Sequence record: PQ471516.1
Source of the DNA: Escherichia phage Turkey5
Length of the DNA stretch: 64,000 bases
Strand: one strand, 5' to 3'
The notes under the pieces were generated by a model. The model was not told where the DNA came from, ran no database searches, and saw only the letters and a program-made list of their open reading frames with translations. Made by a program: the position numbers and the translations under genes. Positions 4,967 to 6,625 of the stretch are shown here, piece by piece. How positions within the stretch are numbered: position 1 is the stretch's first letter; every line of letters begins with the position of its first letter.

Positions 4967-5400
4967 ACCTAAATGTATCTAAAGAGTTTTTTGATGATGT
5001 CAAAGAATCTTTCTTACAATTAAACGAGAATAGTCGTTTAGATCCTGAAATCAAAGAGGTTGTTCTTCGTTGGCAGAAGAGTCCTTTATTAGATAAAATT
5101 GTTCCTAGATGGAGTTGTCAGGGTCACAGTGATACACATAGTGATTCTGATTATTACATTATTTTCTGTACACAGGACGATGGTGCTGATATTCTATATG
5201 ATATTTTTGATGAGTTTTGTAAGAGTGCCCGTTGGAACTACCGTGTTATTAAGTTGATTCACCAGAATCACTTAGTTGCGGAACCGCACATTGAAATTGG
5301 TCGATACACGGAAGGTCACCAGGAGACTATGAACCACATGAAAGCTTTATGGCTCGCCAAATTACAGGAGATTGAGGATAATCATGAGCAATACAAATAA
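4963..5400 (+). CDS. hypothetical protein, cassette gene E
   Basis: ATGA overlap with D; ORF track. Confidence 0.5.
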   Translation: MNLNVSKEFFDDVKESFLQLNENSRLDPEIKEVVLRWQKSPLLDKIVPRWSCQGHSDTHSDSDYYIIFCTQDDGADILYDIFDEFCKSARWNYRVIKLIHQNHLVAEPHIEIGRYTEGHQETMNHMKALWLAKLQEIEDNHEQYK

Positions 5401-6625
5401 ATTTCTTGAACAAACAATTGTCAAGCACTTAGCTGGCTCACAGGCATACGGAACCAGTACACCACAAAGTGATACCGATTATCGTGGTATCTTTTTGGCA
5501 AACAAAGAGTTCATCATGACTCCTTTTTATCGAGTCAAGGAAGTATCTGATGTAAATGAAGAAGATACGAAATTCTATGAACTAAATCAGTACTTACAAC
5601 TGTATACTGAAGCTAACCCGAACATTCTTGAATCACTATGGGTTGACCCTGAACACATCGTAGAAAGTACTGAGATTTATGATTATCTCCGTAGCTTCAA
5701 CCGTGATCTTCTTAGTTCTAAGATTGCATTCTCTTACACTGGTTATGCATACAATCAGGTAAAACGCATGTCAAATCACCACGGTTGGATTGGTAAAGAA
5801 CAAGTAGCAGAACGCCGCTTACGTGAAATCTTCACCGAGCACCCAACTAATGAAGTTGTTGATTGGATGTACGCGTATTTCCCTGATTATGTGGTAGAGC
5901 GTGTTGTAGAAGAAGATAAGGTACTAGACCGTAAAGATATAGTTGATTTCGACAAATACATGCGTGATACTTCCTTACAACTTATCAGTACTGTTCCTTT
6001 AGCACAACATCATTTTGTTCGTTTAGTTCATAACTATCTACCACAAAAAGTACTAGATCGTGACTTTAGTCTAGCTAACTTCAATCATGGGTACGAGTTA
6101 ATTCACTACGGTGATAATATCTTTGCAGTTATTCCTAACGTTAATACTAAAACTATTAGTGTAAACAATGATCTAGTATGGGATAGTTCCAAAGAACGCA
6201 CACCAGAAGAACTAAAGATTACTCCTGCACTTATTGTTAAATTCAATCGTAAAGAGTACGAAGAAAACAATGAAGGTCGCAAGAACTATCACAAGTGGAA
6301 AGAGAACCGTAATGCGAAGCGTGCAATTTTAGAATCAAAACACGGATATGACAGTAAACATGCTATGCATACGATTCGCCTGTTGAATACAGCAGAAGAA
6401 GCATTACTTACTGGTGAAGTTCTTGTAAAACGCCCTGATGCTGATATGCTTATGGATATTCGCAACGGTAAGTGGACTTATGAAGAAGTCATGGAGTACT
6501 TCAACGATAAGGTTGACTATATTCGTAATGTGGTTTACAAGAAGTCTGTACTGCCGAAGAAGCCAAATATTGAATTAGCATCTAAAGTACTAATCGATAT
6601 TCGAGAAATGCAGTGGTATAAGTAA
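5384..6625 (+). CDS. Pol-beta-superfamily nucleotidyltransferase-fold protein (about 414 aa)
   Basis: N-terminal motif LAGSQAYGTSTPQSDTDYRGIF matches hG[GS]x(9-13)[DE]h[DE]h, with a further acidic residue about 40 aa later; ATG 5384 with GAGGAT upstream. Confidence 0.55.
   Translation: MSNTNKFLEQTIVKHLAGSQAYGTSTPQSDTDYRGIFLANKEFIMTPFYRVKEVSDVNEEDTKFYELNQYLQLYTEANPNILESLWVDPEHIVESTEIYDYLRSFNRDLLSSKIAFSYTGYAYNQVKRMSNHHGWIGKEQVAERRLREIFTEHPTNEVVDWMYAYFPDYVVERVVEEDKVLDRKDIVDFDKYMRDTSLQLISTVPLAQHHFVRLVHNYLPQKVLDRDFSLANFNHGYELIHYGDNIFAVIPNVNTKTISVNNDLVWDSSKERTPEELKITPALIVKFNRKEYEENNEGRKNYHKWKENRNAKRAILESKHGYDSKHAMHTIRLLNTAEEALLTGEVLVKRPDADMLMDIRNGKWTYEEVMEYFNDKVDYIRNVVYKKSVLPKKPNIELASKVLIDIREMQWYK

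Follow-up and report, generated by a model that had tools for sequence, protein, structure and literature searches.

The 64,000-nt stretch of the genome of Escherichia phage Turkey5 that was analysed here (sequence record PQ471516.1; in the following, the window) carries on its plus strand a gene for a protein of 413 amino acids (aa), which with high confidence can be assigned to the RlaP family (PF10127) of nucleotidyltransferases (NTases) as a divergent representative, as judged from its predicted sequence. Over 4 kb, the window shares 95% identity with Escherichia phage vB_EcoM_JNE01 (JNE01), and its identity to Asteriusvirus jumbo phages of the PBECO4/121Q type amounts to approximately 76%. 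The open reading frame (ORF) ends at position 6625 and could start either with a TTG at 5372 or with an ATG at 5384. We prefer the ATG because of the GAGGA sequence at a suitable place upstream of it. The product starting at this ATG is 100% identical to the database cluster P0001, and the N-termini of the orthologues are colinear with it in the homologue alignment. By its sequence, the ORF is genuine and has a good ribosome-binding site. The gene and its parts are the following:

5384-6625, plus strand: coding sequence of the long-form RlaP-family NTase, 413 aa plus stop (ORF list, Pfam, PHROG)
5374-5378, plus strand: Shine-Dalgarno sequence GAGGA, read from the sequence, 5 nt ahead of the ATG at 5384
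5384-5788, plus strand: NTase catalytic domain, aa 1-135 (invariant columns, hhalign, Pfam)
5435-5440, plus strand: G18-S19 of the Pol-beta motif
5471-5479, plus strand: D30xD32 of the Pol-beta motif
5564-5566, plus strand: D61, the third carboxylate of the Pol-beta motif, 29 aa past D32
5789-5998, plus strand: long connecting helix and helical insertion of about 66 aa, aa ~136-205 (homologue gap, structure model)
5999-6247, plus strand: beta-rich subdomain, aa ~206-288, common to all long-form members and missing from canonical RlaP
6248-6622, plus strand: C-terminal helical domain, aa 289-413
6344-6370, plus strand: GYDSKHAMH motif, aa 321-329, in homologues the site of inteins between D323 and S324

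An earlier note on this DNA had described the product as an NTase of the Pol-beta superfamily with the motif LAGSQAYGTSTPQSDTDYRGIF, and this description holds. G18, S19, D30, D32, D61 and E66 are invariant across 36 homologues, down to approximately 39% identity, and the catalytic triad D30, D32 and D61 and the GS loop are intact in the predicted protein. In the NTase domain D61 is followed by the RlaP-type motif N78-P-N-x-x-E83-x-L85, in which N78, P79, N80, E83 and L85 are likewise invariant. Pfam assigned residues 16-133 to RlaP (PF10127; 58.8 bits at a cutoff of 23, E=9e-16), and PHROG 388 (“nucleotidyltransferase”) matched the full length of the protein (residues 4-412, E=8e-76). An exhaustive search of representatives revealed 6820 related clusters at 50% identity with E<=1e-3, 449 of them with E<=1e-30. 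These assignments, the number of related clusters and a confident structure model argue against a chance occurrence of the motif. According to our tblastn analysis, homologues are present in 576 phage records, 184 of them with a query coverage of 80% or more, with one match per Asteriusvirus record; no second RlaP paralogue was found within 10 kb in the window or in the viral loci. The scan of the protein against NCBIfam gave no hits.

For comparison, canonical short RlaPs were taken from the operon neighbours of cellular homologues, and the profile of 34 of them (A3) was aligned by hhalign with the profile of the long-form family described here (A1). The N-terminal domain (aa 10-133) matched with a probability of 98.2% (E=4e-14). 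In this alignment, GS, DxD and D61 pair with the canonical S52-G54 (consensus S-G-A), D66/D68 and D101, respectively, and the N78/P79/E83 region pairs with the canonical N118, G119 and E123. The canonical RlaPs match positions 8-248 of PF10127 with 143 bits, while the long-form members match positions ~19-142 only. Searches of PDB sequences with the protein and with both profiles revealed no relevant match.

RlaP was named by Burroughs & Aravind in 2016 for its linkage to RNA ligases, as cited in 10.64898/2025.12.29.696909. Iyer et al. (2021, PMC7824862) stated that no other RNA-end NTase is as prevalent in jumbo phages and that RlaP is distributed there in the same manner as RNA ligases, and predicted that it restores nucleotides lost to anticodon-nuclease attack. 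In a preprint of December 2025, PfRlaP and PaRlaP from Pseudomonas were reported to add one to two nucleoside monophosphates to the 3’-OH of RNA, to accept any NTP and also dATP, to prefer Mn2+, to be inactive on DNA and protein, and to rescue the aminoacylation of a tRNA missing one anticodon-loop nucleotide (10.64898/2025.12.29.696909). In the crystal structure of PfRlaP the NTase and helical domains form a cleft, and the last helix packs on the NTase domain (10.64898/2025.12.29.696909). T4 NrdC.11 also belongs to PF10127 and falls into cluster 5 of this preprint (10.64898/2025.12.29.696909).

The earlier note had spoken of an NTase of unknown substrate, and this is largely outdated: the profile search places the protein in a named family with a published prediction and preprint biochemistry. 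Membership in RlaP implies that nucleotides are added without a template to a polynucleotide 3’-OH. The substrate of the Turkey5 protein is thus most likely a polynucleotide 3’ end and probably RNA, since the only biochemistry available for the family is RNA-only. We propose, with a probability of roughly 55%, that the protein is a template-independent NTase which would extend a polynucleotide 3’-OH, namely of RNA and most likely of damaged tRNA, by a few nucleotides.

The canonical RlaPs of P. fluorescens and P. aeruginosa, which are encoded in rtcB-rlaP-rtcA operons, share with the Turkey5 protein the homologous NTase domain, the GS...DxD...D triad and the motif N-[PG]-x-x-x-E-x-L. In contrast to the 413-aa protein, they are approximately 250-290 aa long and lack an insert of about 150 aa, and they are located in RNA-ligase operons, which is not the case for the Turkey5 gene. 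T4 NrdC.11 and its T4-like homologues are also RlaP-family NTases of phages, in genomes with Rnl1 and PNKP. They are reached by tblastn through N-terminal similarity only (approximately 23-27% identity, aa ~10-199), and the C-terminal module of the long form is unmatched in them. The members of PHROG 388, such as PBECO4 gp066 (YP_009150380), Cronobacter phage CR3 gp195 and Salmonella phage PVP-SE1 gp166, are long-form throughout. At the amino acid level, the Turkey5 protein is 74% identical to PBECO4 gp066 (“nucleotidyltransferase” in RefSeq) and 33-35% identical to the members from Vequintavirinae.

The AlphaFold model of the 413-aa protein is confident (pLDDT 91.4, pTM 0.81) and consists of the following parts:

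residues 1-110: NTase core
residues 114-152: long helix
residues 156-165, 168-174 and 189-201: further helices, up to residue ~201
residues ~206-288: beta-rich subdomain
residues 289-412: helical domain

The protein is a representative of a separate long-form subfamily of RlaP, in which an insert of about 150 aa, including the beta-subdomain, is located between the NTase core and the helical domain. The insert probably adds substrate contacts. A part of it, the helical insertion of approximately 66 aa (aa 139-205), is special to the jumbo-phage clade, and homologues of about 350 aa are gapped there. Residues 134-290 gave no hhalign match to canonical RlaP, and the fold search with the beta-subdomain gave no match in the PDB. 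The earlier note had seen no recognisable domain in about 300 aa after the NTase signature. This is true for residues ~136-288, which are unmatched, but PHROG 388 covers the full length and the last ~125 aa are weakly RlaP-like. In the C-terminal domain W305, K306, R309, N310, R313, E317, D323, K325, H329, R332, R350, D352 and R360 are invariant. In a weak alignment with canonical RlaP, the landmarks K-x6-R, TGE and LP..P keep the canonical order (in canonical RlaP a K-x6-R-x11-G-E helix followed by LP..P), and K325 and R332 pair with the invariant canonical K175 and R182. By analogy to PfRlaP, the substrate cleft would be formed by this conserved basic helical domain and the NTase domain.

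At least seven clusters (50% identity) contain inteins of approximately 320-410 aa, all at one common site between D323 and S/T324 of the invariant GYD[ST]KHAMH motif (P0090, P0121, P0131, P0135, P0136, P0142, P0150 and P0199, and probably also P0122, in the intein of which a LAGLIDADG_3 domain was found). The junctions are GYD|C... and ...HGN|[ST]KHA. Since this helix is targeted by inteins, we consider it to be functionally critical; it aligns with the canonical K175/R182 helix. Further, in five clusters of the same identity level (P0157, P0164, P0171, P0221 and P0253) the NTase is fused at its C-terminus to a DnaQ-like DEDD 3’-5’ exonuclease of the Pfam RNase_T family. The intein site and the exonuclease fusions fit an enzyme acting at polynucleotide 3’ ends. 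An assignment of the fused exonucleases as RNA-specific was withdrawn, because the PDB search gave DNA Pol III epsilon, PolC and ExoX as their best relatives (E=1e-24 to 1e-13). As a side observation, in three loci (L068 9980-11807, L079 9968-11773 and L087 1886-3052) separate ORFs encode the N- and C-terminal parts of the NTase, and in L068 and L079 an ORF-containing insert of 0.5-0.6 kb lies between the two parts. The hits in the neighbourhood include GIY-YIG and NUMOD3 homing-endonuclease domains, which points to an intron or to a homing endonuclease of the free-standing type in the split genes.

Among the structures in the PDB, kanamycin nucleotidyltransferase ANT(4’), LinB and the Hailong protein HalB match best. 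They have the same two-domain layout, but the resemblance in fold is weak. Two other functions have to be discussed here. The protein could nucleotidylate a protein or a small molecule, like the MNT antitoxins which AMPylate HEPN toxins, or like aminoglycoside and lincosamide NTases. Kanamycin NTase, LinB, AadA, MNT-HEPN complexes and HEPN domains are indeed among the top folds and share the layout with an NTase domain and a helical bundle. Yet RlaP labelled no protein (10.64898/2025.12.29.696909), and the exonuclease fusions and the links to tRNA and DNA enzymes point to a polynucleotide as substrate. No HEPN-toxin-like partner is encoded near the NTase gene in the window, and the inactivation of a toxin by adenylylation, which the earlier note had considered, lost ground for the same reason. 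This function is scarcely probable.

Another function would be the synthesis of a free oligonucleotide, signal or decoy, such as an oligodeoxyadenylate of the HalB type or a product of the CD-NTase type, which would interfere with defence signalling of the host. In one phage lineage the NTase gene adjoins a gene for a single-stranded DNA-binding protein (SSB), which would be in line with this, but the similarity to HalB is weak (13-15% identity, TM ~0.2-0.3) and common to all enzymes with an NTase domain and a helical bundle (KNTase, LinB, AadA). CD-NTases were found by Foldseek at E>1 only (CdnC, E=1.2), PADLOC gave 0 hits with the protein, and the sequence of the catalytic domain is firmly RlaP. 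We therefore regard such a product as very improbable, and the cyclic-oligonucleotide synthase proposed in the earlier note finds no backing in the PADLOC and Foldseek results. Extension of RNA 3’ ends remains the preferred function.

The genomic contexts in other phages and in bacteria differ strongly. In 17 fetched loci, genes for a CCA-adding enzyme, a small PTH2-like protein and the NTase follow each other in this order within 0.5-3.5 kb (L002 3699-8065, L003 5197-8044 and L004 3542-8047; also L024, L054, L063, L065 and L068). This module is found in Vequintavirinae (CR3, pEp_SNUABM_01 and PVP-SE1-like phages), in a Vibrio phage and in several environmental contigs, and the small neighbour, a “hydrolase”, contains the motif GIxAGIQxxH. 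The Asteriusvirus-type clade, which has the additional insertion of ~66 aa, does not contain these genes next to the NTase gene. Among 80 cellular loci (Cyanobacteria, Myxococcota, Planctomycetota, Firmicutes and others), approximately half pair the long form with a translationally coupled canonical RlaP of about 250-290 aa. The two genes overlap and occur in either order (for example L122 6129-8128 and L155 6153-8155, within L099-L163), and in Myxococcota, Planctomycetota and other bacteria no RNA ligase is adjacent to the pair. It is tempting to speculate that the paired proteins could constitute a heteromeric or two-step NTase system. Two of these contexts argue for RNA as the substrate, namely the bacterial operons in which the long form is paired with canonical RlaP and, in several phages, the linkage to genes for CCA-adding enzymes and PTH2-like proteins.

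A different arrangement was found in approximately 45 of 79 viral contigs (among L019-L079; for example L036 7858-12151), in which genes for gp32 SSB, UvsX/RecA and the NTase are followed by two small ORFs of ~170 aa and ~152 aa. Consistent with this, RecA (18 hits) and gp32 (14 hits) are the first and the second in the ranking of Pfam neighbours in the viral loci. The possibility that the 152-aa downstream gene encodes UvsY was considered and received no support from a search of PDB sequences. This arrangement raises the question whether the substrates of the long-form clade are DNA 3’ ends. Its members would then be terminal transferases of recombination-dependent replication or repair, tailing or remodelling single-stranded DNA in concert with SSB, recombinase and an exonuclease of the proofreading type. 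Such a role would also be in line with the epsilon-like exonuclease fusions, with the use of dATP by PfRlaP, and with HalB, a DNA synthesiser, being among the nearest structures. On the other hand, the canonical RlaPs show no extension of DNA, and epsilon-like DEDDh exonucleases include RNA enzymes, too. At none of the fetched loci was an epsilon-like exonuclease found as a separate neighbour gene. Moreover, the flanking genes of the gp32-UvsX loci are 50-78% identical, and for this reason we count their order as the inherited synteny of one broad environmental phage lineage and not as independent linkages; it was not seen in the window or in Vequintavirinae. Altogether, action on DNA ends is the main alternative to action on RNA, but seems doubtful to us. 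The proposal that the long-form subfamily as a whole is a DNA-directed or oligodeoxynucleotide-making terminal transferase, working with SSB/UvsX and an epsilon-like exonuclease and not in RNA repair, is unlikely. If it were true, such a transferase could remodel the 3’ ends of single-stranded DNA or make single-stranded oligomers which blunt SSB-sensing defences, for example Hailong.

Action on RNA, which we prefer, is in line with the gene content of the phage lineage. PBECO4 encodes an Rnl1 with a T4_Rnl1_C domain (gp129), a bifunctional PNKP with kinase and HAD phosphatase domains (gp125) and a PTH2 (gp111). In JNE01, the genes for Rnl1, PNKP and PTH2 are located at 15.9-24.0 kb on the strand of the NTase gene, 33-41 kb upstream of it. 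The window itself contains the following gene:

21618-22730, plus strand: class II CCA-adding enzyme (PF01743 and PF12627, PHROG 2244), 15 kb downstream of the NTase gene

This enzyme likewise belongs to the Pol-beta superfamily and is a template-independent 3’-end NTase, and it is a possible functional partner of the long-form RlaP. The two proteins are distinct, as the earlier note had stated: they differ in domain architecture and in Pfam family, PF10127 versus PF01743 and PF12627, and Pfam revealed no PolyA_pol head or RNA-binding domains of the PF01743 type in the RlaP protein. The presence of the Rnl1/PNKP kit favours RNA as the substrate, because Rnl1 needs a 5’-phosphate and a 3’-OH, which fits the product of RlaP. 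Independently of the NTase, we observed that in the regions containing these genes (PBECO4 57-107 kb, L164; JNE01 1-50 kb, L165) one early-gene strand carries Rnl1, PNKP, PTH2, a metallophosphoesterase, a DNA ligase, Sir2, Nudix and a WGR-domain protein. Genes for RNA repair and NAD-related counter-defence are thus densely packed here, and almost all of them are labelled “hypothetical” in JNE01.

Based on these data, the following scenario can be envisaged. During infection, the enzyme would act most likely on damaged host or phage tRNA and would restore nucleotides removed by RloC-like “smart” anticodon nucleases or by enzymes trimming 3’ ends. It would leave a 3’-OH, which is what a ligase of the Rnl1 type requires; healing and resealing of the tRNA could follow, carried out by PNKP and Rnl1 of the phage, and the repaired tRNA could be made usable again by the CCA-adding enzyme and PTH2.

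Several observations weigh against this proposal. Within the window and its closest relatives, no RNA-repair gene adjoins the NTase gene: Rnl1 and PNKP are 37-40 kb away in PBECO4 and JNE01, and the CCA-adding enzyme is at a distance of 15 kb. RNA ligase is absent from the top 25 neighbour families in 54 cellular and 38 viral loci, and the commonest viral context of the NTase is gp32 SSB plus the UvsX recombinase. The PTH2 call for the small neighbour gene is below the Pfam threshold (E=0.009-0.046). Further, the biochemistry of RlaP was reported in a preprint and for another subfamily. The match of the Turkey5 protein to PF10127 spans profile positions 25-144 of 249, which is the N-terminal half alone, and its C-terminal part (aa 311-407) is colinear with the canonical columns 155-268 in an hhalign alignment of low quality (E=0.0014, probability 18%). 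Finally, the fused exonucleases resemble the proofreading subunit epsilon of DNA Pol III and not RNase T.

If the protein nevertheless serves RNA repair, Rnl1, PNKP, PTH2, the CCA-adding enzyme and RlaP would constitute a five-part kit for tRNA maintenance, which could act against those anticodon nucleases that not only cut but also remove nucleotides. This would have a bearing on the host range towards E. coli with defences of the RloC or PrrC type and on the therapeutic use of Asteriusvirus. The gene is a fairly ordinary accessory gene, the orthologues of which are already annotated, and the family has been named, predicted in jumbo phages and partly characterised. In the literature searched we found no description of the long-form architecture, of the inteins at a single site, of the pairing with canonical RlaP in bacteria or of the split between RNA-type and DNA-type contexts. 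Profile searches largely place the protein in a characterised family, which the earlier note had named as a finding that would speak against it; the acidic motif residues, a lack of conservation of which it had named as another, are conserved in the homologues. More useful than the single gene is the result at the family level, a large long-form subfamily which is found partly in the context of tRNA enzymes and partly in that of DNA recombination genes.

In the window, tail-fibre genes are located downstream of the NTase gene, and its other neighbours encode hypothetical proteins. The features next to the gene are:

4963-5400, plus strand: upstream ORF of 145 aa (ORF list), overlapping the start of the NTase gene by 17 nt
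6630-6674, plus strand: stable hairpin right after the NTase stop, stem of 13 + 3 bp, no U-tract

The upstream ORF and the NTase gene are probably co-transcribed and translationally coupled. Homologues of this ORF were found in only two related loci. Because it contains GHSDTHSDSDYYIIF, the 145-aa ORF was considered as a cryptic NTase paralogue; this was rejected, since hhalign aligned it with the NTase family at a probability of 1.5% and Pfam gave no hit. The hairpin has a predicted folding energy of -20.2 kcal/mol (z=-5.1), and none of 200 shuffled sequences folded equally well. At the same place, PBECO4 contains an 11-bp inverted repeat with a different sequence and the similar loop CTAAAAATG. 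The stem is thus kept despite changes in both arms, which suggests that it is an element for processing, stability or termination ahead of the tail-fibre genes. A scan for promoter and terminator consensus sequences gave counts no higher than in shuffled sequences, and no tRNA genes were found in the window.

Just upstream of the NTase cluster, three overlapping ORFs at 2957-3553, 3544-4080 and 4065-4565 are tandem paralogues (PHROGs 18641 and 7868), and they are followed by a further ORF at 4559-4966 (PHROG 22376). Elsewhere in the window, the product of the ORF at 19194-20120 (308 aa; PHROG 15410) combines a phage lysozyme domain with a weak LysM match under the Pfam cutoff and is a probable endolysin or tail lysozyme.

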